A stretch of DNA of 64,000 bases, from positions 34,921-98,920 of the forward strand of contig JAWKSL010000001.1 in the NCBI GenBank assembly GCA_041389085.1, read 5' to 3'. A program made the translations under genes and the position numbers. The notes below the pieces were generated by a model. The model had not been told where the DNA came from and did no database searches. It worked only from the letters and a program-made list of their open reading frames with translations. Shown here one piece after another: positions 12,446-63,628 of the stretch (its first letter is position 1; every line of letters begins with the position of its first letter). This stretch comes from Minisyncoccota bacterium (lineage in GTDB: Bacteria > Patescibacteriota > Minisyncoccia > UBA6257 > 1-14-0-10-44-23).

Positions 12446-13230
12446 TATCTGGTTTGTATTTCAACATCCAGTATCGGCTCAAGTACGATATTTTGCAAAA
12501 CTGCCGGACTGACCGGAGTTATAAGCTCAAAGCTCTCTTCTTCAAACCCTGCAATGCTTTCAAGCTGGGTTTGAGAAACTGCGACGACTGCATCGTTGGC
12601 GTCGCGGTAGCGCGCTATTATTTCTGCACTTCGTAGGGTTTGTGCATTTTCATTTCTGAGTAGGCCGGTAAGGATGATGCGTGGCTTCAGCTCGCTTTCG
12701 TCTACAACCACTACCTCTTGGTTTCTAACTTCATACTTTGGGCGGGCGAAACTTTCGATTGGTTGCCACTGGCGCTCAGTCACCACCGCACTGATTGAAA
12801 CTATATCGCTTGCGGCAACGCTTATGTTTGGTATAAGAACTCCTTTTCTTTCTGATGGGTAGATAAAGGTTTGTTCGCTCAGGTTTAGCGCCGCTCCACT
12901 TTTGCGCTCTACGGTGACTTCAATGTTTACTTCAGTAGCACCGTAGCTGGCATTTGGGTTTTCAAGGCTTATGTAAATGCTTGAGCGCTCACTATCTTGC
13001 GCTGGAATTGCTATAGCGCCACTTGCAGTTAGCTCCTTTAGGGTGTTTATCGCGCAGTCTTGGCAGGAGCCTCCGCAGTCGATACCAGTTTCGTCTTGGT
13101 TTTTCTTTCCATCAGTACAGCTTGGAGCTGGCTTGAGCGTAGCTTGGTAAATTAAGAATCCGACACCTAAAAGGACGAGTAGGTAGAGGGCTCCGTAGAT
13201 AAGTTGCTTTATGATGCGCCTGGAACTCAT
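12445..13230 (-). CDS. Membrane-anchored hypothetical protein with a Cys-bracketed acidic motif ([22 protein letters not shown]) and beta-rich extracellular domains
   Basis: N-terminal TM helix. Overlaps the SEDS start by 1 nt (operon). No family assignment possible. Confidence 0.5.
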
Positions 13231-13315
13231 ATATGAATTATTTTAGCAGAAAGAAAGACAAGATTTTAGACGTTAGATTTTTGATTTTTGAAGACGCTGA
13301 ACTATACGAAACAGG

Positions 13316-13344
13316 TTTGACATAGCGCCCTTTATGTTTTATAG
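13316..13344 (+). promoter_or_regulatory. Sigma70-like promoter TTGACA-17-TATAGC for GC-rich cassette A
   Basis: Read directly. Equivalent element upstream of cassette B. Confidence 0.5.
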
Positions 13345-13348
13345 CTAT

Positions 13349-13436
13349 AGGAGTTTTTTGAAAGCTATTTGCTCGGTTTTTGGCCGCACGTTTTTGCTCT
13401 TTTTGAGAGTAGAAATGTGCGGCTAAGAGGGCCGCA
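13349..13436 (+). promoter_or_regulatory. Conserved structured leader (copy A), ggagttttttgaa...gccgcacRtttttgctcttttTgagagtagRaatgtgcggctaagagggccgc, with alternative hairpins
   Basis: About 85 % identical to 14197-14269. 9-bp stem GCCGCACAU/AUGUGCGGC. The shared GCGGC can alternatively pair with the downstream GCCGC. Confidence 0.5.
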
Positions 13437-13511
13437 AATATGGGCTACGAACACCTTGGCACGATGCTAAGTTAGTAGATGCCCGATAGACTCCGAAGAA
13501 AGGTTTCTATC

Positions 13512-14078
13512 ATGCAAGGTAAAAAGATCACAATCGATCAGGGCAAGGAAGCTCTTGATCTTCTGAGCCGGCTCAGCCCGGAGCAGTACCAGGAGAGACG
13601 CGCTTGGTTGGCGCGCATTAGCGATCCTCGCTTTAACCCCAACATGCTCAGGCTATTCTACCCCTTCAAGGCTAATCAACCGTTCCAGTGGAACTGCCGC
13701 GGAGTTGAGCGCGAAGGAGCTGTCTGCGAGGCGTCTGTCACCATCGCCGATCTTGAGCTCGTCCCCTTCCACAAGGATGGTGAGAAGTGGATCAGTGGCG
13801 AAGAGATGCGCACTCGCGCTGCCGACGAGGAGGCCTACCCGGGGTGCTCAGGCTTCGGCCAGCACCAGGCCGAGGACATTCTCGAGCGAGCCTCTGAGCT
13901 GCCCGAGGAGTTCCGTAAGTACGTGATCGTCTTCGCGGACTCCGTTCTTTTGGACGGCGTCTGTCATCGATACGTTCCGTTCCTCGCCTGGGATGGCGGC
14001 CGGTGGCAGCTGAACTGGCGCTGGATCGATAGCAGCTTCGAACGCGTCTGCCGATTCCCTCGGCTGCGGCGTGAGTAG
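13512..14078 (+). CDS. Hypothetical protein (188 aa) in high-GC cassette A, distantly related in its C-terminal half to the cassette B protein
   Basis: Long GC3-rich ORF and ATG at 13512 after an AAAGG SD-like site. The ORF-track start at 13479 is an upstream extension. No known domain recognised. Confidence 0.6.
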   Translation: MQGKKITIDQGKEALDLLSRLSPEQYQERRAWLARISDPRFNPNMLRLFYPFKANQPFQWNCRGVEREGAVCEASVTIADLELVPFHKDGEKWISGEEMRTRAADEEAYPGCSGFGQHQAEDILERASELPEEFRKYVIVFADSVLLDGVCHRYVPFLAWDGGRWQLNWRWIDSSFERVCRFPRLRRE

Positions 14079-14096
14079 GAGCCGCCCACAACAATG

Positions 14097-14139
14097 ACCC
14101 CGCGCGATGCAGTGCATCGCGCGGGGTTTGTTCTTTTTT
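14097..14139 (+). terminator. Rho-independent terminator (ccccgcgcgatgcagtgcatcgcgcgggg + tttgttctttttt) of cassette A
   Basis: GC-rich hairpin followed by a T-run. Near-identical to 14950-14989. Confidence 0.8.
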
Positions 14140-14162
14140 ACCGCTCTAGAGATCTGATTGGT

Positions 14163-14191
14163 TTGACTTAAGGTGCTTTATATTTTATAAC
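14163..14191 (+). promoter_or_regulatory. Sigma70-like promoter TTGACT-17-TATAAC for cassette B
   Basis: Read directly. Confidence 0.5.
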
Positions 14192-14196
14192 TATGG

Positions 14197-14269
14197 GAGT
14201 TTTTTGAAGATTTTTGCCGCACATTTTTGCTCTTTTTTGAGAGTAGGAATGTGCGGCTAAGAGGGCCGC
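14197..14269 (+). promoter_or_regulatory. Conserved structured leader (copy B)
   Basis: Matches 13349-13436. Confidence 0.5.
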
Positions 14270-14329
14270 GTTTGAACTGTCTGGGGCTGCATCGGTGTAG
14301 ATGTGGCTGGAGACAGTGGAGCAACAATC

Positions 14330-14926
14330 ATGTCTACAGACACCCGTTTAGATCTTGGAGCCGAACTCGACCGAAAGGTGCGAGAGAAGGGTGGCACGCG
14401 CGAAAATATCGCGCTCGTACTCAGGGAGCGGCCTGACATCATTGATGCTTGTGCCGCCCTGATTGTCGACGCAGCGCGTGAGACGAAGGTCAAGATTGAG
14501 CTCTCGATCGTCGTCGGCGAGGACGAGACTTTCGATAGTCTCGTAGCGGCCGGGCATTACGGCTCGAAGGGCGACTGGGTCACCGGAGAGCAGTTCCCTG
14601 TTCGTCCGAGCCAGCCTGGCGAGCGCCAGCTCGTGCTCTTGCACTTCGCCCGCGTCGTCTCCTCCGAGAATGCAATCGATGAGGCAGCCAAGCAGGGCTT
14701 GGAGCGTCCTACCTACGAAGACGCCTTGCGCTTCGGTGCTCAGCACCCTGAGGTGCAGTGCCAGTTCCCGGTCGTTTTCCTTCATGAACCCCTGCCGGAC
14801 GCGTACGACGGCCCGAGCGTCCTCTGCCTCGATTGTCGCGCCTCGGGGCGCGACCTGGACTACCGCTGGTTCGACGGCGGTTGGGGTTGCCTCTACCGCT
14901 TCGTCTTCGTCCGCCCTACAGCGTGA
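14330..14926 (+). CDS. Hypothetical protein (198 aa) in high-GC cassette B
   Basis: GC3-rich ORF with ATG at 14330 and GGAG 9 nt upstream. The 3' end and terminator module are shared with cassette A (gcgtgagtaggagccgNccacaacaatgacccc...). Confidence 0.6.
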   Translation: MSTDTRLDLGAELDRKVREKGGTRENIALVLRERPDIIDACAALIVDAARETKVKIELSIVVGEDETFDSLVAAGHYGSKGDWVTGEQFPVRPSQPGERQLVLLHFARVVSSENAIDEAAKQGLERPTYEDALRFGAQHPEVQCQFPVVFLHEPLPDAYDGPSVLCLDCRASGRDLDYRWFDGGWGCLYRFVFVRPTA

Positions 14927-14949
14927 GTAGGAGCCGACCACAACAATGA

Positions 14950-14989
14950 CCCCGCGCGATGCAGTGCCTCGCGCGGGGTTTGTTCTTTG
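14950..14989 (+). terminator. Rho-independent terminator of cassette B (one-base variant of the cassette A terminator)
   Basis: Hairpin plus T-run. Confidence 0.8.
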
Positions 14990-14992
14990 CTG

Positions 14993-15024
14993 CTCTAGAG
15001 TTATCTCTAGAGATAACTCTAGAG
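14993..15024. repeat. Perfect 32-bp palindrome ctctagagttatctctagagataactctagag between cassette B and the mraY stop
   Basis: Read directly. Related CTCTAGAG-containing palindromes lie at 14147-14160 and 62196-62215. Confidence 0.7.
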
Positions 15025-15030
15025 AGAGAT

Positions 15031-16083
15031 TTAGAAGAACTTGTTGAGGAAGAAGACTACGAGCCCCATACCCACGCTCATAACTGAAACTATCCAAAAG
15101 CGCATCGTTACTCGTGTTTCGTGCCAGCCGAGAGCTTCGAAATGGTGGTGAATTGGCGCTGAAAGGAAGACTTTCTTCTTCCTTATTTTTTTACTTAAAA
15201 CTTGGATGATGACTGAGCCGCTTTCGATGATGAAAATTGGGGCGAAAAGTGGAAGAAGGAGTGCTGTGTCTGTAAGCATGGCGATAACTCCGATAGTAAT
15301 TCCAAGCGGCATTGACCCTGTGTCGCCCATAAAGAAGCGGGCTGGATAAATGTTGAACCAAAGAAAGGCAAGAAGAGCGCCGATAATAACTCCGCCGAGC
15401 ACTGCGAGGTCGTAGCGACCGAGTGAGAAAGCTACAACGGTAAGGGCTACGTAGGTAAAGAGCATAACTCCTCCCGCAAGGCCGTCGAGGCCGTCTGTTT
15501 CGTTTGCTGAAAAGGCGCTGGCTACGAGCACAAAGATGAAAAGTGGAATGTACCAAACTCCGATGTTTACGTTTCCGAAAAACGGAATATTGAGTGTGTC
15601 CCAATCGAGCCTAAAGTAGAACCAGAGTGCTCCGAGGGTTGAAAAGATAGTGTAGACAAGAAGGCGGTGGCTCATCTTGAGCCCTCCCCCTTTTGGGCCG
15701 ATACCGCGAATACCAAACACGTCGTCTACATAGCCTACGAGGGCTGCGAGGAAAAGTGCTGCGAGTGGAAGGTATGTTTGCGCTCTATCGACAAAGTTTA
15801 GGTAGTCCCAGAAGCCGCCAAGCATTTTTGAAAGAAGGAAAATAGCTACTGCAAGAGAGACTACTGTCGCCCACACGATAATTCCTCCCATGGTCGGCGT
15901 GCCTACCTTGCCTTTGTGAAGGCTGTGAAATACTGGAGCGTCTTTTTTAGAACGAATTTGCTTTTTTGCGTTTTGAGTGTTGAGAAAGCTTAAAACTGGA
16001 CCGGTTATTAAAAATGCCATCACAAAAGCTAGAAGTGATAGCCCTATAACGCGAACTGCTTGTAAAACGGTAATACTAATCAT
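15031..16083 (-). CDS. mraY: Phospho-N-acetylmuramoyl-pentapeptide transferase
   Basis: Polytopic membrane protein with DDxxG/NETDGLDGLAGG and SAPIHHHFE motifs. Confidence 0.95.
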   Translation of the reverse strand: MISITVLQAVRVIGLSLLAFVMAFLITGPVLSFLNTQNAKKQIRSKKDAPVFHSLHKGKVGTPTMGGIIVWATVVSLAVAIFLLSKMLGGFWDYLNFVDRAQTYLPLAALFLAALVGYVDDVFGIRGIGPKGGGLKMSHRLLVYTIFSTLGALWFYFRLDWDTLNIPFFGNVNIGVWYIPLFIFVLVASAFSANETDGLDGLAGGVMLFTYVALTVVAFSLGRYDLAVLGGVIIGALLAFLWFNIYPARFFMGDTGSMPLGITIGVIAMLTDTALLLPLFAPIFIIESGSVIIQVLSKKIRKKKVFLSAPIHHHFEALGWHETRVTMRFWIVSVMSVGMGLVVFFLNKFF

Positions 16084-18490: not shown

Positions 18491-19777
18491 CTAACTTTCG
18501 TCTTCATGGCTTCGTAAAGCTTCTTTAGTATATCTATTACTTGCATTCCATAGCATCCAGCCAGATACGTATTTTGAGCAGGCTCTTTTTTCTGTAAGTG
18601 TTTGGCAGTCTGAATACTTTGCTGCGCTGTCTTCTATAGCTTGAATTTGCGCCCGTACTTTTGCGGCATCGTAGTCTGCTCCAAGATCGAAGTCTTGAAT
18701 CCACGGTCGCATAGTTGGCTGCACTGGGAAACTTCTTACTTGAGCTGGAACCTGCGGCGTAGCGCTCGCGGTTGCTGTTTCTGGGGTAGACGGCGTCGGA
18801 GTATACACAAGGTTTAGACGCGCAAGCGCTTCGTCTATTGAATACTTCATAACTTCGTAAGGATACTCTGCTGGGTTGTCGTAGCCGATAAAGCCGTCTG
18901 CATAGTGGCTTGGGTAAGTCATTGGCGCAATTGCGTTTATATACGGCATAGCATCTTCAAGTACTTGGCCGATGCCTATGTCTCTTCTCGCGTAGGCAAC
19001 TTCGCCAAAAAGGTCTGCGCTTATCATGGCGTTTGGTAAACTTTCGCGTACGTATTTAAAGAAGCTTTTTAAAATATCTCTCTTTGGCGTTACCTCGTCG
19101 TAAAACGGGTAGGCTATATCGTCTGTATTGCCATCGGTAGCAAAGCGAATGTAGTCAAAATTTACCTCATCGAAGCCTCTGTCTAAAATGTCTTTGGCTA
19201 TCGCTATATTGTAGTCCCAGACTTCTTTGCTGGAAGTATCCATCCAGTGCACATCTTTTCTGTCGCCCCAAATGCCGCCCTTGCTTTTACTTTGAATGGC
19301 TAAGTCTTGTCTCGCGTTTGCCAGCTTATTGTCTTGAAAAGTAGAGATGCGCGCTATAAGGTAAATGCCGTTTTTGTGGAACTTGCGAATGAGCGCGTCT
19401 ATGTCGGGAATGCGATTTTCAAACGCCTCGTACTCTACAACTGCTTCAACGTCTGGCTTGTACGAAACAACACCGGTGTAGTCTTTTATATCTATAACGA
19501 TGGCGTTGAGCTCTGTGGAATTTATCAAATCGATAAAACCATCTACTCGCTCGCTGTTTCCCGCAGAAAACGCTGTGGCGTATATTGCCTTCACTACCTC
19601 TGGCGGATTTTTCAGCTTTTGGAGGAGTGGGTCTTTTTCTTCTTTTTTCTCCTCTTGGTGCTTTGTGGCGTTTTCCGCATTGAGCGTAAACGACACTGAG
19701 TTGTCTTTTGCTACTACTATCAGCACAAAGAGGAAAATAAGGACTATCGCGATAATAATGAGGTTTCTTCGCGTCAT
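18491..19777 (-). CDS. Membrane-anchored putative glycoside hydrolase (GHL10/YddW-YngK-like TIM barrel)
   Basis: N-terminal TM, GFDEVNFDYIRF block reminiscent of the GHL10 G-DG-LDY-R-P motif. Family recalled from memory, not searched. Confidence 0.5.
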   Translation of the reverse strand: MTRRNLIIIAIVLIFLFVLIVVAKDNSVSFTLNAENATKHQEEKKEEKDPLLQKLKNPPEVVKAIYATAFSAGNSERVDGFIDLINSTELNAIVIDIKDYTGVVSYKPDVEAVVEYEAFENRIPDIDALIRKFHKNGIYLIARISTFQDNKLANARQDLAIQSKSKGGIWGDRKDVHWMDTSSKEVWDYNIAIAKDILDRGFDEVNFDYIRFATDGNTDDIAYPFYDEVTPKRDILKSFFKYVRESLPNAMISADLFGEVAYARRDIGIGQVLEDAMPYINAIAPMTYPSHYADGFIGYDNPAEYPYEVMKYSIDEALARLNLVYTPTPSTPETATASATPQVPAQVRSFPVQPTMRPWIQDFDLGADYDAAKVRAQIQAIEDSAAKYSDCQTLTEKRACSKYVSGWMLWNASNRYTKEALRSHEDES

Positions 19778-21865: not shown

Positions 21866-22000
21866 AATGGCCGTGCCTACGGCAGATAAACTCACACATA
21901 TCGCCTTCAACTTTAACGGCTCACACGTACGTGTGAGCCGTTAAAGTTCTAGTCTAGGATGTAGTATCCATGCGCCCCTTTCCGTGTGAGGCGTTTGTGG
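21866..22000. repeat. Mosaic repeat copy II: small hairpin + aaactcacac + 40-bp perfect palindrome (21909-21948) + conserved tail ...gtagtatccatgcgcccctttccgtgtgaggcgttt
   Basis: Palindrome identical to copy I. The tail matches 2022-2072. The head (ggccgtgcctacggcagataaactcacac) matches 51524-51552. It sits between convergent genes (bidirectional terminator position). Confidence 0.8.
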
Positions 22001-26228: not shown

Positions 26229-27185
26229 TCAGTATTCCTCACGGATGGGAAGCTTACTTACTACTGGGCAGTTCCTGCTAGTAATAGTGTTTGTTCCGGT
26301 ATAGGTTCCTGCTGCAGTTGCCGGTGGTACTCCAAGTCCCCACGAAATTGTATCTGTTGTTGTCGGGTTTCCGTCGTTTGTCGGTTGAGGAAGGGTAATG
26401 TTGATGTAGGTTGGCGTTGTAGAAAGGTCGGTTCCTGCGCTGTAAACGAAGGGATCAGCATCGTACTCCTGGTTTCCTACGGTAAGAGTATCTCCACCGC
26501 TTGTCATGTTAGTACCTGAAAGCTGTGGGTCCATATCTACGTTCCCTGTGTTGGTAACAGTAGTTGTAGAGTTTTGATCTGCAGAGTCTGATCCTGCAGC
26601 GAGTGTTCCATAGGCTATGGAAGCGGTAACGTCGAGTGCCTGCAGGGTGTTAATTTCGGTGGTTCCGGTGCTGTCTGTTGATGTTGCAGTACCATCTCCT
26701 GCTTTGAGAGTTGCTACCCAGTTTTGTGCGCTAAATGAACCAGTGTCGGTAGGGTCTGCATAGTACTGAATTGGTACTCCGCACCCATAAGCTGCTGAAG
26801 TGTCTGAGCCACCGTCGCAGGTGTTTGAGTCGAGCACAACACAGGTTACTTGCGCGTAGCAATTGTTGTTGTCTGACTCTCCGCTCGTGTCGCAACCCGT
26901 TGCAGTTATACCTGAGCGATAAAAGTCGAGCGTAACAGCAAAAATCTCACCACAGCCGTTTGTGTCGGTAACGGTAAGCGTGGTTGTGGCTACGGTAATA
27001 ATCCCCTCTGTTAGGGTAATGTTGCTTCCACTGTTTACTGAAACGCTAGAAATAGATGGAGTGGCGTTTCCGACAGTAACTGAGGTGCTTACTGAGTCTG
27101 CTGATACTAAGGTTGCTGAGAAAATCATGACTGCTGAAATGACAACTGCCAGCAGAATGTTCTTCGTAGTACTTGAAATGCTCAT
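26229..27185 (-). CDS. Secreted Thr/Ser/Gly-rich Cys-containing protein, paralogous to the C-terminal 300 aa of the 765-aa protein
   Basis: Signal peptide begins at the ATG at 27185 (MSISSTTKNILLAVVISAV..). C-terminal about 100 aa nearly identical to the C-terminus of 27260..29557. Confidence 0.55.
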   Translation of the reverse strand: MSISSTTKNILLAVVISAVMIFSATLVSADSVSTSVTVGNATPSISSVSVNSGSNITLTEGIITVATTTLTVTDTNGCGEIFAVTLDFYRSGITATGCDTSGESDNNNCYAQVTCVVLDSNTCDGGSDTSAAYGCGVPIQYYADPTDTGSFSAQNWVATLKAGDGTATSTDSTGTTEINTLQALDVTASIAYGTLAAGSDSADQNSTTTVTNTGNVDMDPQLSGTNMTSGGDTLTVGNQEYDADPFVYSAGTDLSTTPTYINITLPQPTNDGNPTTTDTISWGLGVPPATAAGTYTGTNTITSRNCPVVSKLPIREEY

Positions 27186-27259: not shown

Positions 27260-29557
27260 CTACTGCCCCGCTCCTGCAGTAATAGTGTTTGTTCCGGTAT
27301 AGGTTCCTGCTGCAGTTGCCGGTGGTACTCCAAGGCCCCATGAAATGGTGTCGGTGGTTGTCGGGTTTCCGTCGTTTGTCGGTTGAGGAAGGGTAATGTC
27401 GAGTGCGGCACTAAGACCAGATAAGCTCGTGCCTGCTCCATAAGTAAATGCGTCTGCAGCATACTCTATGTTTGATGCTGAAATTGAGTTTGCGCCGCTT
27501 GTCATGTTAGTACCTGAAAGAAGTGGGTCCATGTCTACGTTTCCAGTGTTGGTAATAGTTGTTGTACTATTTGAACCGCCCGTATCGTTTCCTGGGTCGA
27601 TAGTGCCAAAGTCGATGGTGCTTTCCGTAATTTCTAAGGCAAGAAGTGAAGCCATTTCAATAGTGTCGCTACTTGTTGTTCCTGCACCATCGCCGTCGCT
27701 TGGCGTTAGCGTACATGTCCAGGTATCGCTTGCATTTGGCGAGCCTGCATCGGTAGCGTCTGCATAGTAGTAGACCGGGATAGTGCACGTATACGTTTCG
27801 CTATTCCCTGACCCACCTGATGGGACGCACTCGCTATCGCCCGATTCTTGATAGTGGCTATTGTTGTCGAGCCCTGAACCAATTCCTACTGATGTTCTAA
27901 ATAAGTCTGCCTTCACTGAGTCTATGTCTGCATAACCATCCGCATCCGTTACCGTGCCGGCGCAGACTACGTTTTTTGTTGTTCCTTCGGTAAGGGTTAT
28001 CGACGATGCATCTGAGTCTATCGAAATTGCACTTGCGATTGGCGCTGTGTTTCCACTCGATGTAGCAAAGGTTGCAACGTTGATGGCGAAGAAGCCTACT
28101 GTATTTGCTTGTGTTCGATCTGTCCCTCCACCCTCTGTTCCTGTAATCGGATTCATATCAAGACCGATGTCGTGGCCGTCAGTAGCTACAAAATATATAG
28201 CTCCTGGGTGGAAGCTTCCTGCAAATGTGTCTTGACTTCCCTGGTTTCCGCGCGTGTAGGCACCGTGTCTGCCGAGCGTTTGCTGAGTGCCATTTACGGT
28301 GATCGATCCGTACGCGGTCAATCGCTGCCCAGCACTTACGTTGTTTCGTGCTGTCCATACGTTTGCCCAAGCTAAAACATCGGTTGAGTTTACAACATTC
28401 ATCGCTGAGTTGCTTGCTTTTGTAAAACTTTCAGAGTCGTTAAATTCTACGTCGCGCATAGCGTTCAGCGTTACCGCGCTGGTGATATTTTGGAGCCCTG
28501 TTGAGTCGTGTGACTTAAACACTTCTACGTTGTCTGGTAGCTCTAGCACCACTATTTGACCATTCCCATCAAGGTCAAACGATCCGTCTACATCTGCACC
28601 TCCTTGGTCTGCAGATACACCCGGACCTCTAAATACCTCTACCTGAATGTCGATGTCCGATGTGCTTGTTTCGATAAGATCCATAGAGCCGATACCGCAG
28701 TACTCGTTTGCACTGCTTCTCTGATAGCAGTATGAGCGCGTTGATAGTGCGTCTGTGCCTCCATACTCAAGGTGCCCAATTCTTTGAGTTCTTGAACCCC
28801 CTGTATCTCCTGATATTCCCCAGGCAATAAGGTAGCGCTTATTATCTCCCTTTACGGTTACAGTGTCTGCTGAGGTGTTTACTTCTATAGCGCTGGAGTT
28901 TGATTGCACAACAGTTCCTGTGAGGTCCATTGTATTTGGAGTTGTGCCTCCTGCTGCTCCACTTGTCGCTCCGTAGTTATATATACCCCAGTTTTCTGGG
29001 TTTATTCTTACAATCTGAAGGTTTGATAAGCCAGCAACACTTCCTCCTGTAGCTTCGTCTGTGTCTCGCCTTGTTTGTATTTCTACTCGCGAGTTTGCGG
29101 TTGCACCAATAATGACCCCGACAGCTCGGCTCCAGTACTCATCTTCTGAGTTGTCGCGAGAATATCCGGTCATATAGGTTGTAAATACTGATCCGCTTCC
29201 TGAGGTTTGTACCACTTTTGACTGAATGTTGTTTCTTCCGTTTGAAGTATCGTTTCCTCGTGTTGTAGCCAAAATAAGATAGCTTCCTGCTTCATCGAGC
29301 TCAATTGTTGAGCTGCTTATTTGCGTATAGATGCCGTCGTTTCGAATTTCAGTATCGTATTCGTACGCGGCAAAGCTTGTACCCGCAGTCTGGCTTCCCG
29401 TTTGGTCTTGCCAGTGCCCAATGTCTCCGACAGCTGCCTCTACACTCTCAGGTCTAGGAGGAAAATTAAGGTCGCCCCAAACTTGAGGCCATCCTGCAAA
29501 AATCCAAGCAAGAACCAGGGCGAATATCGCTATGTTTCTTCCGAGCCTTAATTTCAT
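27260..29557 (-). CDS. Large secreted Ser/Thr/Gly-rich surface protein (765 aa)
   Basis: N-terminal signal peptide, low-complexity T/S/G-rich composition, paired Cys. Shares a C-terminal module with the downstream gene. Confidence 0.6.
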   Translation of the reverse strand: MKLRLGRNIAIFALVLAWIFAGWPQVWGDLNFPPRPESVEAAVGDIGHWQDQTGSQTAGTSFAAYEYDTEIRNDGIYTQISSSTIELDEAGSYLILATTRGNDTSNGRNNIQSKVVQTSGSGSVFTTYMTGYSRDNSEDEYWSRAVGVIIGATANSRVEIQTRRDTDEATGGSVAGLSNLQIVRINPENWGIYNYGATSGAAGGTTPNTMDLTGTVVQSNSSAIEVNTSADTVTVKGDNKRYLIAWGISGDTGGSRTQRIGHLEYGGTDALSTRSYCYQRSSANEYCGIGSMDLIETSTSDIDIQVEVFRGPGVSADQGGADVDGSFDLDGNGQIVVLELPDNVEVFKSHDSTGLQNITSAVTLNAMRDVEFNDSESFTKASNSAMNVVNSTDVLAWANVWTARNNVSAGQRLTAYGSITVNGTQQTLGRHGAYTRGNQGSQDTFAGSFHPGAIYFVATDGHDIGLDMNPITGTEGGGTDRTQANTVGFFAINVATFATSSGNTAPIASAISIDSDASSITLTEGTTKNVVCAGTVTDADGYADIDSVKADLFRTSVGIGSGLDNNSHYQESGDSECVPSGGSGNSETYTCTIPVYYYADATDAGSPNASDTWTCTLTPSDGDGAGTTSSDTIEMASLLALEITESTIDFGTIDPGNDTGGSNSTTTITNTGNVDMDPLLSGTNMTSGANSISASNIEYAADAFTYGAGTSLSGLSAALDITLPQPTNDGNPTTTDTISWGLGVPPATAAGTYTGTNTITAGAGQ

Positions 29558-33200: not shown

Positions 33201-33965
33201 ATGGAAAACAACACACTTTCGAAAAAGCAACAAAAACGCCTTGCGCGTGCTGCTAAAAAGCAGGCTCAAATGCAAAATCAGAAGACTGGCCGTGCAGTTA
33301 AAAGCACTGCTACTTGGGCAATTACCCTCCTTGTAATAGTAGGAATTGTATACGGACTTGTGCTCCTCGTACGCAATTCTTCAACAAATGAACTTATCGG
33401 AGTAGATACCGATCTTTCAATTGAAAGCACTGATTGGACGATTGGAGAGGCTGAGGCTCCTGTACAGCTGATCGAGTTTTCAGATTTCCAGTGCCCAGCA
33501 TGTGCGGCATACCACAGCGTGGTTAAGCAGGTGATTAGTGAATACCCAAGTGATGTACTTTTTGCCTACCGCCACTACCCTCTTAGCCAGATTCACCCAC
33601 ACGCGGAACTTGCTGGTCGCGCTGCGGAAGCTGCTGGAATCCAGGGTAAGTTCTGGGAAATGCACGATAAGCTTTTTGAGACTCAGGCAAGCTGGTCTGC
33701 TCGCGCAAGCGTAAAAGACCTCTTTGTCGAGTTTGCTAGTGAACTTGGCCTGGACGTTACCCGCTTTGAAGCCGACATTGATAGCGATGAGGTGAAGGAC
33801 GCTGTAGAAGGCGAAGCTCTTCAGGCTCGTGCGCTCAACCTTCCTGGAACCCCAAGCTTTATCGTGAACGGAGTATACGTTCAGAACCCACCAAGCATTG
33901 ATGCGTTTCGCGCAATAATAGAAGATGCAATTGCAAATGCAGGAGCAGACACCACAACTGAGTAA
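33201..33965 (+). CDS. Membrane-anchored DsbA/BdbD-like thiol:disulfide oxidoreductase
   Basis: N-terminal TM, thioredoxin fold with FSDFQCPACAAYH (CPAC active site). Confidence 0.8.
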   Translation: MENNTLSKKQQKRLARAAKKQAQMQNQKTGRAVKSTATWAITLLVIVGIVYGLVLLVRNSSTNELIGVDTDLSIESTDWTIGEAEAPVQLIEFSDFQCPACAAYHSVVKQVISEYPSDVLFAYRHYPLSQIHPHAELAGRAAEAAGIQGKFWEMHDKLFETQASWSARASVKDLFVEFASELGLDVTRFEADIDSDEVKDAVEGEALQARALNLPGTPSFIVNGVYVQNPPSIDAFRAIIEDAIANAGADTTTE

Positions 33966-34657: not shown

Positions 34658-36112
34658 CTAGCTTCTTATCTCTACTGGGCCGTGAGTTGATACATGCGTA
34701 GTCTTTCTACCGCTTAGCAAGAGGTATACGAGCAACGCAATGATTATCAGGATAAGGAACCATGGGCTGAAGATGAGGTACCCAAGTGCAGAGAATGCAC
34801 TTGCGAATGCCACATCGTTTCGAACACCAGTTTCAATAACGGTAGTGTTTGTTCCAAGCACTCCATTAGTGATGATTCCTTCTGGGAGTTGCACGAATGC
34901 AAGCTCTCCGGTGGTATCAGTCTGCTTACCTGCTACGGCGTGAGCCTTTAGGTAGTAGGTAGTGTTCATTGGAAGACGACCAAGGTTCACTTGGTGGTAG
35001 GTGGTTGTTCCACCTGCGCTTCGAACGAACTCGTAGGCTGATAGTCCTTGCTCCTCATCGTCAACGTGTGAGCTGAGCGAGTAATATACGCTTCCTTGTG
35101 CTGGAATGGTGGTTTGGAAGCTTACGATTACGTTGAGGTTTGCATCGTTTTCAACCCGAAGGTCGAAGATGTCCAAGTCTGCTACTGCAGGCTCAACTAC
35201 TACTGTAGGGCCTGGTACGTAGATGATTTGGCGCCCCTGTACGTATACAGAGAAGCTCTGAGTGGTAAATGCCTTTCCATCAAACGCCTGTACGGTTACC
35301 GCGTGTGATGTGTTTGCAAGACCACCTGCAGCAGTCCAACTGATAAATCCAGTACTTGGATTAATAGTCATTCCTGCTGGAGCTTGAACAAGCGCGAACA
35401 CTACAACATCGCCGTCTGCATCAAATGCGTTTACGTCGTAGCTGTATGAAGTTCCTGCTTGAACAAGAGTAACTGGGCTAGAGATGATTTGAGGAGCACG
35501 GTTGCCTGTGCTTGGGTTGTCGTTTCCTTCGCCAACGCGCACCGTTGAACAGCGGTCGCTGTCGCGGTTTCCGTTTGCATCGGTAACTTCTACCTCTACA
35601 TCATACTCACCAGTTCGGTTGAAACGAACTGACTCTTCGTCGTCGTTTCCACTAATGTCTCCATCCCAATCGATGTCGTATGGAGCTCTTCCGCCACTAA
35701 TCTTTACCTCAAAGTCCACACGGTCTCCTGCCTCGATACGAGTATCAGAAACCTCACAGCGAACTGAAAGATTGTTTGTTGGTGGTGGGGTGGTTGGAGT
35801 ACCACATGAAACACATGTGTTGTTGGTGTTTGTCCAACCTGAGTTTGTGTTTGTGTTACTTACTACACCTCCTCCCTGCTCAGCATTGATCGTTGGATCA
35901 TAGCTGTTTGGGTTGTTTGCATTCCAGTCTGTGTGACAAGCTGGATCTTGGCTATCGATAAGACCGTTTTGGTTGTTATCGTAGTTATCAGAACACTGGG
36001 TGAAGCCAGCGGCAGTTCCGACCAAAAGTGCTGTACCTGAAAGAGACACTATTGTTACAAGCATCACAATCAGGACAGTCATTGCCTTTCCTATTGATTT
36101 TCGGTTTTTCAT
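34658..36112 (-). CDS. Multi-domain surface adhesin-like protein (signal peptide, Cys-bracketed acidic motif, PKD-like, Ig/cadherin-like, FN3-like, C-terminal TM anchor)
   Basis: RVDFEVKISGG..YDVEVEVTDANGN (PKD-like), APQIISSPV..FDADGD (He_PIG-like), FN3-like YYLKAH segment, C-terminal TM. Paralog of 37347..38810. Confidence 0.6.
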   Translation of the reverse strand: MKNRKSIGKAMTVLIVMLVTIVSLSGTALLVGTAAGFTQCSDNYDNNQNGLIDSQDPACHTDWNANNPNSYDPTINAEQGGGVVSNTNTNSGWTNTNNTCVSCGTPTTPPPTNNLSVRCEVSDTRIEAGDRVDFEVKISGGRAPYDIDWDGDISGNDDEESVRFNRTGEYDVEVEVTDANGNRDSDRCSTVRVGEGNDNPSTGNRAPQIISSPVTLVQAGTSYSYDVNAFDADGDVVVFALVQAPAGMTINPSTGFISWTAAGGLANTSHAVTVQAFDGKAFTTQSFSVYVQGRQIIYVPGPTVVVEPAVADLDIFDLRVENDANLNVIVSFQTTIPAQGSVYYSLSSHVDDEEQGLSAYEFVRSAGGTTTYHQVNLGRLPMNTTYYLKAHAVAGKQTDTTGELAFVQLPEGIITNGVLGTNTTVIETGVRNDVAFASAFSALGYLIFSPWFLILIIIALLVYLLLSGRKTTHVSTHGPVEIRS

Positions 36113-36246
36113 GATTTGTTGATAAAAAATCAGCCTTCCTATGGAGCTGAATGTATAAATATTGTAATAGCCACTTCTGGCTTCTGGCCTTGTTTTATCA
36201 GAAAAAGCGCCCTTTTGTCAATGATTTGCCCTATAAAAAGTTTTGA

Positions 36247-36276
36247 GGCGCGATACATTGCTGTATCGCGCCTCAG
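36247..36276 (-). terminator. Rho-independent terminator (gaggcgcgatacagcaatgtatcgcgcctc + aaaactttttat) of the GC-rich gene
   Basis: Hairpin plus U-run on the minus strand. Confidence 0.75.
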
Positions 36277-36289
36277 CGTCTTGGATAGC

Positions 36290-36982
36290 TCACTCGCGCG
36301 GAGCGAGGAACTTGTCCATGGGAACACCCATGCCGTTGAGCGTCAGGCTGTGAGGCCCGACCCCGGCGGCACTGCTCCAGTCGATGGCGAACTTGTCGCC
36401 AGGGCTCACCGTGCCTTCCCAACGAGCCTCATCGCCGTTTGCGAAGTGGATGAGCAGGCGTCCGTGCCTTGGCCCGTAGAGCCAGACCGGCTGCCCGTTC
36501 TGGAAAGCCCAGATCTGGTTGCAGTTCTTGTCCTGCGGGGTGTTGAAGTACCCATTGTCCGGGTAGATCATGCGGTCGATGCCAACCCCTGTGTAGAACC
36601 CTGTCTCCGGATCGCGGATGGCCTGAGGGCCACCGTACATCCAGTTACCACCACCGACGCTGTAGTCGCACCAAGCGTAGCCATCGATGGCGCATTCGGC
36701 GTTGGGCCGGATGCAGACACAGAAGTCTGTAGGCTGGGGCGCGGTAGGCGGAGGCGGCGGGGGCGGCGGGGGCTGAGTGCAGTTACGGCAGGGGCGAGGC
36801 CCGCTGTCGTCGTCGTCCAGATCAAGGAAGTAGCCGCCGACGATGACACCACCGACGAACTCGATGAGCCCGCAGGGGATGCAGCCAAGGGCTGCGAGGA
36901 ATCCGCCAGCACCGCATCCGCCGATGATGACACCGGAGGTGATGAGGACTGCTGCGGTCGCGTTGCGCAAGGCGTTGAGCAT
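36290..36982 (-). CDS. High-GC secreted/membrane-anchored hypothetical protein (230 aa): Gly-rich hydrophobic N-terminus, poly-Pro (P9) linker, Cys-containing C-terminal domain
   Basis: ATG at 36982 preceded by AAAGGAGG. The ORF-track 37120 start is an upstream extension. About 65 % GC versus the 45 % surroundings. Confidence 0.6.
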   Translation of the reverse strand: MLNALRNATAAVLITSGVIIGGCGAGGFLAALGCIPCGLIEFVGGVIVGGYFLDLDDDDSGPRPCRNCTQPPPPPPPPPTAPQPTDFCVCIRPNAECAIDGYAWCDYSVGGGNWMYGGPQAIRDPETGFYTGVGIDRMIYPDNGYFNTPQDKNCNQIWAFQNGQPVWLYGPRHGRLLIHFANGDEARWEGTVSPGDKFAIDWSSAAGVGPHSLTLNGMGVPMDKFLAPRE

Positions 36983-37043
36983 GGTTAGCTCCTCCTTTGG
37001 GCGCCCTGCGCCCAGAAGTTGGGGTGAATTTGAAAGATCTCTC

Positions 37044-37073
37044 ACTAACTCGCAAGAGCTAGTGTTGAGCCAA
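37044..37073 (-). promoter_or_regulatory. Promoter TTGACA-18-TAATAT for the GC-rich gene
   Basis: Read directly on the minus strand. Confidence 0.55.
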
Positions 37074-37111
37074 ATATTAGCATATAAGTTTGTATTTGTC
37101 AATAGATAACT

Positions 37112-37137
37112 AAAAAGCACCCGAAAGGGTGCTTTTT
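37112..37137. terminator. Bidirectional terminator aaaaagcacccgaaagggtgcttttt
   Basis: Read directly. Confidence 0.8.
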
Positions 37138-37225
37138 AGAATCTCGTGTAAGAATGGCTTTTAGCCTGTCTTTATCTCTCGATAAACTCGAGATGAGACG
37201 TCGGCTTTAACCAATCTCAACCCTT

Positions 37226-37325
37226 GCCCCGCCGAAGGCGGGGCTCGCACCAAATCTAACGGTCAAGCCAGAGATTGGTGCGGGGCAGGACTCTTTCACT
37301 CTACCTTTGGATTTCCAATGATAGG
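37226..37325. repeat. Structured hairpin element copy 3
   Basis: ccccgccgaaggcgggg hairpin, stem gcaccaaatct/agattggtgc with loop AACGGTCAAGCCAG, tail GGGGCAGGACTCTTTCACTCTA. Confidence 0.5.
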
Positions 37326-37346
37326 AGCGAAGAGTAACAGGAAGTT

Positions 37347-38810
37347 TTAGCCTCCTATTTCTACCTGTGCTGGCTGCTGATAAACAGCTACATGGCTTTC
37401 CTTTCTCTTGAAGATAATCAAGAGAAGAAGAGCTATGATAACCAGCAGCAAGAAGAATGGGTTGAAGATAAGGAATCCAAGAGCAGCTATTGCTGAACCA
37501 AGTGCTACAGAATTAATAGAGTTTGCACTGTTGAGCATGATAAAGCTTCTCTCTTCTGAAACCTTAACCTGAGTACCTACTTCGCTTACGATGCGGAAGT
37601 AGTATGTACGGTCAGACTGAAGGTTTCCGAGCCATACCTTGTGAGAGGTAGATATAGCGGTGCTTTGTGGGCTGCTATATTCGTAACGATAGTTTTGTAC
37701 GTTTGGTTGGCTTGCAAGTCCGTAGACTACATATCCACGTGATGGCTTGCTTGTCTCCCAGATAACATACACGTTGTCGTTCTCGTCCTTTTCTACACGG
37801 ATGTTGAACTGTGAAAGATCGATGTTTGAGTCCACTTCAACTACTTGCGCGGTGCGCTCTACCACTACAGTACGGGTTACTGGAACCTGAACGATAGTTG
37901 GGGTAATTGGAGCTGGAACGTTGATCTGCGGAATAGTTGGGTATGAAGGAATTTGCACAGTTGGGGTGGTGTTTCGAACACGGTCAGCCTCAACAGTAAT
38001 TTTAATGTCTCCCTCACACTCTGAGTATCCATCGGTAGCTGAGTATTCGAATCGGTATGTATCCTCATCGCCTACTTCAGTAGTCCAGCTAAAACGACCA
38101 GTGTTCTTATTGAAGTCTGAACCACGTGGCTCATCATCAATGTCGTAATCAATGTCGTTTGTAACTGATCCACGTACATCCACTTTGAAACTTACGCGCT
38201 CTCCCTCGTCTACACGCACGCTCTCGTCTTTACAAACAAGGTTGCTTGTAGCTGGATTTGGCGCTGGACTTGGTTGTGGCTGTGGGGTAGGATCTACTAC
38301 CTGGTTTATCTTATAGATACTAAGAGTTACTTTCTGACTTCCGTTTCGGTTGTCAGTGATTGGGCTATCCTTAAGCCAAAGCCAAAGGTTTGTACCCGAT
38401 CCTGAGATGGTAATAGTCTTTGACTTACCAGCTCCTGCCTGACTAGCAGAATATTGGTCTTGGAAGTATCCAGGAGCTATATCGATGGCCTTTTGAAGAC
38501 CAGTTTCAGATATATACTGAATGTTTGCACGTGGTACCCATGTACCAGTAGTTGTGTACTGGCTAGCACCTTTATCTTGGTCGCTTGACCATGGGCTCCA
38601 TGAACCTCCTTCGTGTTCGATCACGTAAGTTCCTGGTTCAAGAGAAAACCCGTTTACGTTCCCTGGGGCTGCGGTAGCGCTGCTACGAGCATCGAGGGTA
38701 ACGCGTTGTATAAACTGCTTTGTAGTAGCAGCATCTGCCGGCATTGAAGCTGAAAGTGCTACGAAGAGCACAAGCCCAAACGCAAGGCTAAATTTTACGA
38801 GATTATTCAT
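37347..38810 (-). CDS. Surface adhesin-like paralog (signal peptide, Ig-like, FN3-like, C-terminal TM anchor)
   Basis: Same architecture and C-terminal anchor (GFLIFNPFFLLLVIIALLLLIIFKRK) as 34658..36112. Confidence 0.6.
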   Translation of the reverse strand: MNNLVKFSLAFGLVLFVALSASMPADAATTKQFIQRVTLDARSSATAAPGNVNGFSLEPGTYVIEHEGGSWSPWSSDQDKGASQYTTTGTWVPRANIQYISETGLQKAIDIAPGYFQDQYSASQAGAGKSKTITISGSGTNLWLWLKDSPITDNRNGSQKVTLSIYKINQVVDPTPQPQPSPAPNPATSNLVCKDESVRVDEGERVSFKVDVRGSVTNDIDYDIDDEPRGSDFNKNTGRFSWTTEVGDEDTYRFEYSATDGYSECEGDIKITVEADRVRNTTPTVQIPSYPTIPQINVPAPITPTIVQVPVTRTVVVERTAQVVEVDSNIDLSQFNIRVEKDENDNVYVIWETSKPSRGYVVYGLASQPNVQNYRYEYSSPQSTAISTSHKVWLGNLQSDRTYYFRIVSEVGTQVKVSEERSFIMLNSANSINSVALGSAIAALGFLIFNPFFLLLVIIALLLLIIFKRKESHVAVYQQPAQVEIGG

Positions 38811-51519: not shown

Positions 51520-51661
51520 ACGGCCATGCCCGCGGCAGGTAAACTCACACTGAACGCCAAGGAAGTACCGAATCTCGAAACTTTAACGGCTCACAAACGC
51601 CAAGGAAGTACCGAATCTCGAAACTTTAACGGCTCACACGTACGTGTGAGCCGTTAAAGTT
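51520..51661. repeat. Mosaic repeat copy III: head ggccatgcccgcggcaggtaaactcacac, a 43-bp tandem duplication (51553-51595 / 51596-51638) and the 40-bp perfect palindrome (51622-51661)
   Basis: Palindrome identical to copies I and II. Tandem duplication read directly. Confidence 0.8.
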
Positions 51662-51745
51662 GGCTAGGCATCCCCAGTCTTGGCTGTCTTTCGCCCCTTC
51701 GGGGCTCAAGACGAAGACTGTGAAGCCGTTAAAGTCCCCTGCCGA

Positions 51746-57984: not shown

Positions 57985-58096
57985 TTGTCTCTATTATAGC
58001 AAAACAAAAAAACTTGACAGTTTCTTTGTTTTTATATATTTTATTTCTAATTCCGATCGCAAATTGGTGCGCGGAGTTAAAACGAAAGGAGGCTAT

Positions 58097-58261
58097 ATGC
58101 CTCGAGACAAGAGTGGCAACGCCGATCGTCGATCCAAGGATCGTGACAAGAGGCGCACCCCCAAGGGCCCTCAGACCCACAAGAGTGGCGGGCGTCAGCG
58201 CAACGTCGGGCACCCCCGTGGCGAGGAACACTCGCGCATTGCCAAGGGTAACCGCGGCTAG
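58097..58261 (+). CDS. High-GC small basic Gly/Arg/Lys-rich protein (54 aa) immediately upstream of the M16 peptidase gene
   Basis: ATG preceded by AAGGAGG (58086-58092) with GC3-rich codons. MPRDKSGNADRRSKDRDKRRTPKGPQTHKSGGRQRNVGHPRGEEHSRIAKGNRG. Confidence 0.55.
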   Translation: MPRDKSGNADRRSKDRDKRRTPKGPQTHKSGGRQRNVGHPRGEEHSRIAKGNRG

Positions 58262-58271
58262 CCCTCTCACG

Positions 58272-58310
58272 GCCTGCTATGGTTTAAAACTATGGCAGGC
58301 TAATTTTTTA
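58272..58310 (+). terminator. Rho-independent terminator (gcctgctatgg..ctatggcaggc + taatttttt)
   Basis: Hairpin with two G-U pairs plus a T-run. Confidence 0.65.
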
Positions 58311-59587: not shown

Positions 59588-59676
59588 AGTAATTTTACTA
59601 TACTCTAAAAAGTGCGAAGCCCTGCCGAGTGATTGCTCACTGGCAGGGCTTGCTGTGATCGGAAAGTAGCGTGGGG

Positions 59677-60114
59677 CTACTCCTCGATCTCTTGGAAGGC
59701 CGGCTTGCGCAGACCGTCTACCTCCATTTGGAGGTGAGGCTGGCCCGGGACGAACCAGACGTCTTCGCTCCAGATGACTTCGCCGTCCTGGAACTCTGCG
59801 CCGATCTGAATCCAACCACCCTCGGGTGGTAGATTCTTCTCGACGATGTCTCGGTTCCAGACCTTACCGACATAGCCGACCTGAACGCCTACACCCCCGA
59901 CACCAACCCCTCCGGTCGTCAAGAAACTTCCGTCAGGGTCGCGCACCGGGAAAGCGTAGATCTCGCGACCCATGCTGTCCATGTTGAGCACAGATGCAAC
60001 CTGGGTCGCATGGACGTCGATGGGAACGGGGGTTCCGCTCCCGGCCGACCCACCACCGCAGGCGGTGAGGGTGAGTGCCAGCGCGAGGCTGGCGAGGATG
60101 AAGTAGATGCGCAT
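59677..60114 (-). CDS. High-GC lipoprotein (signal peptide with LTAC lipobox), hypothetical
   Basis: ATG at 60114 preceded by GGAAGGAGG. The ORF-track start at 60135 actually spans the SD. MRIYFILASLALALTLTACGGGS. Confidence 0.6.
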   Translation of the reverse strand: MRIYFILASLALALTLTACGGGSAGSGTPVPIDVHATQVASVLNMDSMGREIYAFPVRDPDGSFLTTGGVGVGGVGVQVGYVGKVWNRDIVEKNLPPEGGWIQIGAEFQDGEVIWSEDVWFVPGQPHLQMEVDGLRKPAFQEIEE

Positions 60115-60200
60115 TCGCGCCTCCTTCCCCAGCATGTGCTGGCTTCTAACTTGCCTTGAGCGCTACCCACCGTGGGCTGCGCTTTCGCAAGACTAATTTT

Positions 60201-60235
60201 TGTATAGCAAATAATTATTGTTTTGTCAATGTCAA
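60201..60235 (-). promoter_or_regulatory. Promoter with tandem TTGACA boxes, 17-nt spacer and TATACA for the GC-rich lipoprotein gene
   Basis: Read directly on the minus strand. Confidence 0.5.
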
Positions 60236-63461: not shown

Positions 63462-63497
63462 AAAAAGATGAGCGCACCCTTCAAGGAAGGGGCGCTC
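63462..63497 (-). terminator. Rho-independent terminator/attenuator (gagcgcccc..ggggtgcgctc + aucuuuuu) ending at the M16 start codon
   Basis: Hairpin plus U-run on the minus strand between the small-peptide gene and the M16 ATG. Confidence 0.55.
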
Positions 63498-63511
63498 TGT
63501 TGTTGCCCGGG

Positions 63512-63628
63512 CTACTTCCCGCGCTTGCCGGAGCCGCCGCCCGAGCTTCCGCCCTTGCCGCCGCGCTGGCCGCCGGAACCACTCCGGCCCTTGCCGCTCC
63601 CACCGGAGCCCTTGCTCTTCTTGCTCAT
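63512..63628 (-). CDS. High-GC tiny Gly-rich basic peptide (38 aa) upstream of the second M16 peptidase
   Basis: ATG 63628 preceded by AGAGGAGG. MSKKSKGSGGSGKGRSGSGGQRGGKGGSSGGGSGKRGK. Below the ORF-track size cut-off. Confidence 0.45.
   Translation of the reverse strand: MSKKSKGSGGSGKGRSGSGGQRGGKGGSSGGGSGKRGK

Follow-up and report, generated by a model that had tools for sequence, protein, structure and literature searches.

The subject of this analysis is a GC-rich, single-gene island at approximately 36.25 to 37.0 kb of a 64,000-nucleotide stretch of DNA (hereafter, the window; positions 34,921 to 98,920 of contig JAWKSL010000001.1, assembly GCA_041389085.1, from a Minisyncoccota bacterium), which encodes one protein of 230 amino acids (aa), here designated isl36. 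The explanation judged best, at a probability of roughly one-half, is that isl36 is a native, vertically inherited gene of the Parcubacteria/Paceibacterota whose GC-richness is maintained, with selection at the RNA level as the most likely force. This explanation draws on the conservation of the gene at one locus in deeply diverged genomes, on silent sites that are saturated with changes yet GC-rich in every lineage, and on an excess of computed mRNA structure in island genes.

The host is a bacterium of the candidate phyla radiation (CPR; Patescibacteria/Parcubacteria). Its window, with an overall GC content of 46.3% over 64 kb, contains rpoB/rpoC, the str/S10/spc ribosomal-protein (r-protein) operons, SecY, PGK, RNase P RNA, and a single tRNA, tRNA-Gln(UUG), at 29660. 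The isl36 protein is identical to R3B52_00335, annotated as a "hypothetical protein" in a Candidatus Paceibacterota metagenome-assembled genome.

Composition and transcriptional architecture of the isl36 unit

The isl36 unit is monocistronic, consisting of a promoter, a 5′ untranslated region (UTR), one open reading frame (ORF), and a terminator:

37074-37102, minus strand: sigma-70-type promoter, with -35 box TTGACA at 37102-37097, a 17-nt spacer ending in TG, and -10 box TAATAT at 37079-37074
36983-37066, minus strand: predicted 5′ UTR of about 85 nt, GC content 0.53
36290-36982, minus strand: isl36 coding sequence (CDS), 230 aa, the single convincing ORF of the region
36235-36275, minus strand: intrinsic terminator, with a 14-bp stem TGAGGCGCGATACA/TGTATCGCGCCTCA (36275-36244) and a 4-nt loop, followed by the T-run AAACTTTTTA

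In 100-nt windows, GC content ranges from 0.59 to 0.73 across approximately 36250-37000 and is 0.35-0.36 on either side. The CDS has a GC content of 0.64, with values of 0.62, 0.52, and 0.79 at first, second, and third codon positions (GC1, GC2, and GC3), and A occupies 0.06 of its third positions. For 45 window genes, background GC3 is 0.429 ± 0.046, with a maximum of 0.53, placing isl36 about eight standard deviations away. Recoding the isl36 protein with background codon usage gives a GC content of 0.52 and a GC3 of 0.43; thus, less than half of the GC excess comes from amino acid composition. Codon preference is inverted between background and island, as seen for Pro CCA (0.67 to 0.06), Val GTC (0.07 to 0.59), Phe TTC (0.38 to 0.97), Ile ATA (0.23 to 0), and Gly GGA (0.50 to 0.13). 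The island usage is opposite to that of tuf and the r-protein genes as well as of bulk genes, and the same shift is found in the ortholog from a related locus, L001. A plus-strand ORF of 290 aa covering the island (36116-36988) was rejected as a gene: it lies in codon register with isl36 and stays open because isl36 avoids TTA, CTA, and TCA codons.

The isl36 promoter, identified by a consensus scan, matches the consensus at 10 of 12 positions, carries the TG extension, and sits in a stretch of 31-36% GC; the transcription start was placed from the position of the -10 box and is accordingly a predicted one. Directly 5′ of the Shine-Dalgarno (SD) sequence AAAGGAGG (36998-36991, 8 nt ahead of the ATG), the 5′ UTR contains a hairpin, GGGCGC-AGG-GCGCCC, at 37013-36999. 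Read sequence by sequence, orthologs L001, L004, and L006 have a hairpin at the same 5′ UTR position with different stem sequences, while RNAalifold applied to five orthologous 5′ UTRs, an alignment too divergent for the purpose, returned no consensus structure. Six perfect promoters of the form TTGACA-N16-18-TAnnn[T/A] occur in the 64 kb, the isl36 promoter among them; half of these drive GC islands, and the remainder belong to tuf, the rpsL operon, and an adhesin gene. At the gathering threshold, Rfam detected RNase P and the tRNA only in the whole window, and permissive scans of 36000-37450 and 13200-15100 gave sub-threshold, chance-level matches only. A known cis-regulatory RNA or riboswitch in the island leader or flanks was therefore ruled out.

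These data bear out much of a first-pass annotation of the window, which had described GC-rich segments at several positions, each with one ORF of unknown function behind a host-type promoter and SD and ahead of its own terminator. The segments are real (GC3 of 0.79 for isl36 versus 0.43 for background, and 0.71-0.90 for four of the others), and the anatomy is as described. The isl36 promoter also exists, but its proposed coordinates (37044-37073) were about 30 nt off and its spacer, given as 18 nt, is 17 nt; the actual element lies at 37102-37074.

Family distribution, synteny, and divergence

A hidden Markov model profile (HMMER) run against 1.84e9 representatives drawn from 15e9 proteins yielded eight members of the isl36 family, none of them outside Parcubacteria-type contexts; a scan of viral contigs found no relative. 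A word-indexed search of 5.8e9 clusters returned isl36 itself and one relative, 39% identical. Scans of genome contigs with the family alignment and of metagenome contigs with the isl36 sub-family alignment gave no match, and a genome-contig scan with the syntenic 302-aa protein recovered the L004 contig and nothing else.

All seven family members for which genomic context was retrieved (the window, L001, L004, L006/L007/L011, L008, L009, and L010) reside at one locus, in the order r-protein operon, SecY, PGK, DHHA1, (RNase P), adhesin, isl36 gene, adhesin, VKOR, DsbA, a protein of approximately 300 aa, and a pseudouridine synthase. The exception is L004, in which the isl36 gene precedes both adhesins instead of lying between them. 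One lineage, annotated as Candidatus Harrisonbacteria, was assembled independently as L006 (ENA), L007 (JGI), L011 (NCBI GCA_002773475.1), and L012 (Logan). Pairwise identities between these genomes are 46-52% for PGK, 39-50% for DsbA, and 32-46% for the isl36 protein, with no pair anomalously similar. The presence/absence polymorphism that the first-pass annotation proposed to look for is thus not seen, isl36 occupying the same syntenic slot in seven genomes as divergent as their PGK sequences indicate.

At all seven loci, the orthologs have a GC content of 0.60-0.67 and a GC3 of 0.72-0.92. Neighboring genes have a GC3 of 0.37-0.47 at six of the seven; at L008, the neighbors reach 0.55-0.69 and the family gene 0.74. 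Orthologs of host-like composition at the same locus, named by the first-pass annotation as a refuting observation, are not seen; those found there are GC-rich without exception. Of 824 pairwise comparisons between orthologs at the four-fold degenerate sites of conserved residues, 66.4% show a difference, close to the 69.0% expected for random draws, and the silent sites of isl36 have therefore been fully rewritten since the lineages split. Because these saturated sites are nonetheless GC-rich in every lineage, the high GC content is a maintained equilibrium and not a relic. Together with synteny, this maintained composition supports the alternative that the first-pass annotation had offered in second place, a lineage-specific class of GC-biased small genes.

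In L001 (5660-5735) and L004 (1090-1165), a 75-nt 3′ UTR/terminator module is about 96% identical and forms a long hairpin (GGGGCGCGGCGTGTGTGAT...ATCACAC..CGCCGCGCCCC) followed by a T-run; between the ORFs immediately upstream identity is about 35%, and between the adhesins about 32%. This module is absent from the window and has no exact match in metagenome contigs.

Nucleotide-level signature and mRNA folding

Along island units, GC content is 0.21-0.43 in the promoter, 0.46-0.59 in the 5′ UTR, and 0.60-0.67 in the CDS, continues through a GC-rich terminator, and then returns to about 0.35. The anomaly therefore tracks the transcribed unit, since UTRs and terminators are raised while promoters stay AT-rich. 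Encoded proteins are affected as well: the arginine share of arginine plus lysine, R/(R+K), is about 0.70 in islands versus 0.41 in background (p = 3e-6), and glycine, alanine, arginine, and proline (GARP) residues make up 0.30-0.38 versus 0.23-0.26.

Folding of the complete isl36 mRNA is 41 kcal/mol more favorable than that of its dinucleotide shuffles (z = -3.78), compared with z = +0.58 for the DsbA mRNA. Measured against synonymous-codon shuffles, 12 island CDSs have a mean z of -3.63 versus -1.25 for 18 background genes (p = 3e-4), with values of -7.9 for L004 and -7.3 for L006. Nine controls with 51-56% GC gave z values near 0.

Other GC-rich units in the window and in relatives

Five further units in the window share the promoter-SD-ORF-terminator anatomy of isl36:

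13314-14136, plus strand: GC-island cassette 1, with promoter TTGACA-17-TATAGC, leader hairpin GCCGCAC...GTGCGGC, ORF 13479-14078 (199 aa, GC3 0.71), and a 73-nt 3′ terminator module
14160-14988, plus strand: GC-island cassette 2, with ORF 14330-14926 (198 aa, GC3 0.73; NCBI locus tag R3B52_00215)
58014-58310, plus strand: small GC island, with promoter TTGACA-17-TATTTT, SD AAAGGAGG, a very basic 54-aa peptide (58097-58261), and a terminator
59611-60235, minus strand: lipoprotein island (isl59), with a 145-aa lipoprotein (59677-60114; lipobox LTAC, GC3 0.75), a 5′ UTR of about 90 nt, and a terminator
63480-63720, minus strand: small GC island, with a 38-aa Gly/Ser/Lys-rich peptide (63512-63628, GC3 0.90), promoter-like TTGACA at about 63716, SD GAGGAGG, and a terminator

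The two cassettes are 84-97% identical in their promoter/leader modules and 95% identical in their 73-nt 3′ modules, with ORFs that are only 23% identical. Their proteins have no relatives in viral-contig, phage, or plasmid collections, and the leader has no Rfam match. In the shared leader, an alternative pairing (GCGGC...GCCGC) is possible. Inspection by eye also found a short upstream ORF (TTG...ATGTGCGGCTAA), whose length is 22 codons in one cassette and 18 codons in the second; two indels, of 13 and 1 nt, restore its frame. A palindromic run, CTCTAGAGTTATCTCTAGAGATAACTCTAGAGAGAG, lies at 14990-15030, directly after the cassette 2 terminator.

Upstream of the isl59 lipoprotein gene, the tandem promoter reported by the first-pass annotation is present (TTGACATTGACA-17-TATACA). 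The isl59 ortholog in L002 is 81% identical and has a GC content of 0.64, with neighbors at 0.44-0.48; as read from the two sequences, a stem in the 5′ UTR shows one compensatory change, C:G to U:A, between the window and L002. Relatives carry further single-gene islands with a TTGACA promoter and a terminator, namely L008 9247-9705 (a 152-aa ORFan, GC3 0.84; whole unit 9160-9770) and L006 18730-19062 (a 110-aa lipoprotein, GC 0.67; whole unit 18700-19100), which suggests that the GC-island class is general in this clade.

In several unrelated island genes, a short GCGC...GCGC hairpin follows the SD directly and has the start codon in or at its loop, for instance GGAGGCGCGAAUGCGC (window 60085-60145; L001, approximately 4800-4850; L006, approximately 9980-10030; L008, approximately 3580-3630). 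Once normalized for overall GC, these hairpins are not distinguishable from background.

Forces that may maintain the GC content

Selection on mRNA structure or stability appears to be the likeliest force behind these units, followed by GC-biased gene conversion (gBGC) and, third, by codon- or tRNA-based control. In the explanation judged best, isl36 is a fixed component of a cell-surface locus comprising two Ig/FN3-type adhesin paralogs and the DsbA/VKOR disulfide machinery. A nucleotide-level force acts on all three codon positions and on the UTRs, continuously countering the AT-leaning drift of the genome; it is confined to these transcription units, and the GC-richness is common to at least five other units in the window and to similar ones in relatives. 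RNA-level selection would produce GC-rich, unusually structured, and long-lived mRNAs whose translation start lies inside stable structure. These organisms have few transcription factors, and such mRNAs would provide them with a set of abundant messages under post-transcriptional control.

A number of observations weigh against this explanation. Two island genes, 13a (z = -1.1) and L002_59 (z = -1.9), fall inside the background folding range, and the 5′-most 900 nt of the two adhesin mRNAs (GC 0.46-0.47) reach z of about -4.4 against synonymous shuffles; an excess of mRNA structure therefore also occurs outside islands. The folding energy of initiation regions (-30 to +30) is -16.4 kcal/mol in islands versus -4.7 kcal/mol in background, but when set against each gene's own interior, those of islands are no more structured than those of background (p = 0.12). 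The stable start region of island genes is thus mostly a by-product of overall GC, and translational gating at the start codon was dropped as a separate feature because it showed no excess over gene interiors. For isl59, four-fold divergence between the window and L002, the one close pair, is 28%, with 27% and 48% at the two alignable neighbors; since 28% is not below 27%, these values give no clear indication of extra synonymous constraint. L006 and L011, having essentially no differences, are too close for such a comparison. Island units look strongly transcribed, with both promoter strength and mRNA stability being predictions from sequence. On the protein side, the AlphaFold2 model of isl36 has a mean predicted local distance difference test (pLDDT) score of 60, which is moderately confident only, and the membrane topology is ambiguous, with two hydrophobic segments. 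Lastly, RNA-level selection offers no obvious explanation for why proteins as unrelated as surface proteins, cytosolic proteins, and tiny basic peptides should have the trait in common, and gBGC would give the same compositional pattern.

GC-biased gene conversion at recombination hot spots is an unlikely explanation, though the one to be taken most seriously after RNA-level selection. It would involve exchange, e.g., with DNA taken up by naturally competent cells, with the promoter/leader and terminator modules serving as homology arms and heteroduplex repair biased toward GC. The effect on all three codon positions and on amino acid choice is what a force blind to coding would produce, and divergent ORFs do lie inside near-identical flanks (84-97% versus 23% for the window cassettes; about 96% versus about 35% for the L001/L004 module); the synonymous divergence of isl59, no lower than that of its neighbors, also fits. 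Lassalle et al. (2015, PMC4450053) document gBGC as a plausible source of the GC differences found within single bacterial genomes. The effect at hand, however, amounts to +0.35 in GC3 with sharp edges at promoter and terminator, and recombination tracts are not expected to match transcript ends. To our knowledge, no bacterial gBGC effect approaching this size or sharpness has been reported. Moreover, no conserved flanking module could be detected that the window's isl36 unit has in common with its orthologs, and gBGC does not predict folding in excess of synonymous shuffles.

Codon- or tRNA-based translational control, in which C/G-ending codons would be tied to distinct tRNAs or modifications and slow elongation or make output condition dependent, is improbable. 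It would account for codon choice that is inverted relative to background, tuf, and r-protein genes and is likewise inverted in the L001 ortholog, and islands do carry strong promoters and SD sequences; GC-rich UTRs and terminators and the replacement of Lys by Arg are unexpected under pure codon selection.

The first-pass annotation had favored the view that high-GC genes were acquired repeatedly, plausibly from a high-GC partner or host organism, and then came under host promoters. Such acquisition, whether repeated or as one ancient event that left its GC content as a donor residue, is now considered highly improbable for isl36. What it has going for it is codon usage like that of an organism with approximately 60-65% GC, island ORFs that are ORFans without Pfam, NCBIfam, PHROG, or PADLOC matches, and promoters that are AT-rich and host-like in front of ORFs that are not. 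Against this stand the lack of isl36 homologs beyond Parcubacteria-type contexts among the 1.84e9 representatives searched, the absence of viral-contig relatives for the isl36 family and of phage, plasmid, or viral-contig relatives for the cassette proteins, and the absence of an integrase, a flanking tRNA, or flanking direct repeats at isl36. On the strength of these viral-contig, phage, and plasmid searches, descent from a phage or plasmid was rejected. The same locus is found in seven deeply diverged genomes, its synonymous sites saturated yet GC-rich throughout. A single old transfer is inadequate because its composition should have ameliorated, and seven independent transfers are not credible, since all would have had to enter one slot and come from donors not represented among 15 billion proteins.

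Chimeric assembly or contaminant reads in a CPR contig, a caveat of the first-pass annotation that has only the compositional contrast in its favor, is ruled out, since the same gene, context, and GC jump recur in independent assemblies of one lineage from four sources (NCBI, ENA, JGI, and Logan) and in six further lineages, and the island edges coincide with promoter and terminator signals.

The isl36 protein and its surface locus

All eight family members share one domain plan in the family alignment. An N-terminal positive charge and hydrophobic segment are followed by a lipobox-like [LVT][GTPA]GC motif with G22-C23-G24 invariant in 8/8 members; in isl36, the lipobox-like Cys precedes a second hydrophobic helix. 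The middle of the protein comprises this second helix with CxP(C), an acidic D/G patch, and a Pro-rich linker (CIPC, DDDD, and PPPPPPPPP, respectively, in isl36), and the C terminus is a domain of approximately 150 aa, a β-sandwich in isl36, in which Cys, Trp, Met, and Pro residues are invariant. The plan suggests a membrane-anchored protein of predicted surface localization, whose most likely role would be that of an accessory surface or adhesion subunit. Neither isl36 nor the other island proteins had a meaningful match in Pfam, NCBIfam, PHROGs, PADLOC, or PDB sequences. Among the closest known systems are surface proteins with Ig-like or transthyretin-like β-sandwiches, such as type V fimbrial subunits, Bacteroides "putative cell adhesion proteins," and carbohydrate-binding modules.

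The genes around isl36 are as follows:

37347-38810, minus strand: upstream adhesin-like paralog, 487 aa, with a signal peptide, a He_PIG/Big_9 Ig domain, an FN3/Pur_ac_phosph_N-like domain, and a C-terminal transmembrane (TM) segment; its own consensus promoter is at 38894 and its terminator at 37110-37139
34658-36112, minus strand: downstream adhesin-like paralog, 484 aa, with PKD, He_PIG, and FN3-like domains and a C-terminal TM segment
33925-34389, plus strand: VKOR
33201-33965, plus strand: DsbA-like thioredoxin

As the first-pass annotation had stated, the island lies between two paralogous adhesin genes, whose products are 29% identical (E = 6e-20). The downstream protein matches PF05345 (He_PIG) with 51 bits, for a cut-off of 24; the upstream protein stays below the Pfam cut-offs for He_PIG (21.5 bits; cut-off, 24) and Pur_ac_phosph_N (27 bits; cut-off, 30) and is assigned through its alignment to the downstream one. 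DsbA and VKOR together serve disulfide formation outside the cytoplasm, and every relative long enough to include this pair has it in synteny with the adhesin/island locus.

The 3′ UTR of the upstream adhesin gene (37140-37340, minus strand) looks structured, with an inverted repeat CACCAATCTC...GAGATTGGT around a hairpin GCCCCGCCTTCGGCGGGGC, and ends at the terminator at 37110-37139. It could be the source of a 3′-UTR-derived small RNA; no Rfam family matched it.

Comparison with known systems

Genomic islands and "alien" genes brought in by horizontal gene transfer (HGT) resemble isl36 in their sharp departure in GC, GC3, and codon usage and in their ORFs of unknown function. Unlike them, isl36 is syntenic instead of patchy, each island is exactly one transcription unit, and the composition of isl36 has not been ameliorated despite saturated synonymous sites. 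The ORF list for 33-41 kb contains no mobility genes, no repeat family flanks the island, and the only tRNA of the window is the one at 29660.

Within-genome GC heterogeneity in bacteria, whether attributed to gBGC or to selection for GC (Lassalle et al. 2015, PMC4450053), likewise reflects a G/C-favoring force that opposes AT-biased mutation at coding and noncoding sites. The known bacterial links between GC content and recombination are modest, graded correlations. In the islands, by contrast, GC3 shows a bimodal jump of about 35 points, which is limited to single, strongly promoted genes and conserved at the orthologous loci of CPR lineages that differ at phylum level.

Long-lived mRNAs are known that are protected by 5′ stem-loops and strong SD "stabilizers," including the ompA 5′ UTR, the Bacillus STAB-SD, and the leaders of S-layer genes. 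By analogy, the isl36 unit may resemble these stable messages for envelope proteins, as it combines a long 5′ UTR, whose hairpin adjoins a very strong SD, with a strong promoter and terminator, a monocistronic layout, and a putative envelope or surface product. In the known cases, UTR elements provide the protection and the coding region keeps the normal codon usage of the genome, whereas in isl36 recoding to high GC extends over the entire message.

The units at 13.3-15.0 kb resemble integron cassettes in being short single-ORF modules with unrelated ORFs and a conserved, imperfect 3′ hairpin, but each has its own TTGACA promoter and leader. An integron reading was rejected: the 3′ hairpins are terminator-like with a T-run, there is no RYYYAAC/GTTRRRY attC core, and no integrase ORF lies near 13-15 or 36-37 kb. 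A target of a diversity-generating retroelement was also rejected, as no repeat involves 36290-36982 and no reverse transcriptase domain occurs among the neighboring genes. No paper on conserved GC-rich gene classes in CPR genomes was found in the literature.

Implications

Compositional islands are routinely taken as footprints of HGT, and amelioration theory has them fade with time; isl36 keeps its foreign look although its silent sites have been rewritten. HGT detectors based on GC or codon usage will consequently mis-call this class in CPR genomes. A strong, local, G/C-favoring force acting beside AT-leaning genes in one cell makes the choice between selection and gBGC testable with metagenomic population data. 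The class also marks probably abundant, uncharacterized proteins—a partner of the adhesin/Dsb locus, lipoproteins, and tiny basic peptides—that are candidates for roles in an episymbiotic lifestyle.

A broader proposition can be put forward only tentatively, being less probable than the explanation judged best for isl36: that Parcubacteria/Paceibacterota keep a dedicated class of single, very strongly promoted units, held about 20 GC points (about 35 GC3 points) above the genome over phylum-scale time, in which the whole message is recoded to be hyper-structured and long-lived. If true, surface and small stress-type proteins of organisms nearly without transcription factors would be under an mRNA-composition regulon, and two compositional equilibria under one mutation spectrum would provide a natural experiment on selection versus biased gene conversion.

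Repeats elsewhere in the window

Dispersed repeats of about 95 nt occur at 1975-2069, 21902-21996, and 51615-51709; they have as their core a perfect palindrome, AACTTTAACGGCTCACACGTACGTGTGAGCCGTTAAAGTT, and are intergenic, as are repetitive extragenic palindromic (REP)-like or shared bidirectional-terminator elements. A 43-nt tandem repeat is found at 51553-51638. In addition, two copies of a 125-nt direct repeat (26280-26404 and 27278-27402), 94% identical and 998 nt apart, occur inside or beside the region of the large surface-protein gene (25.3-29.6 kb).

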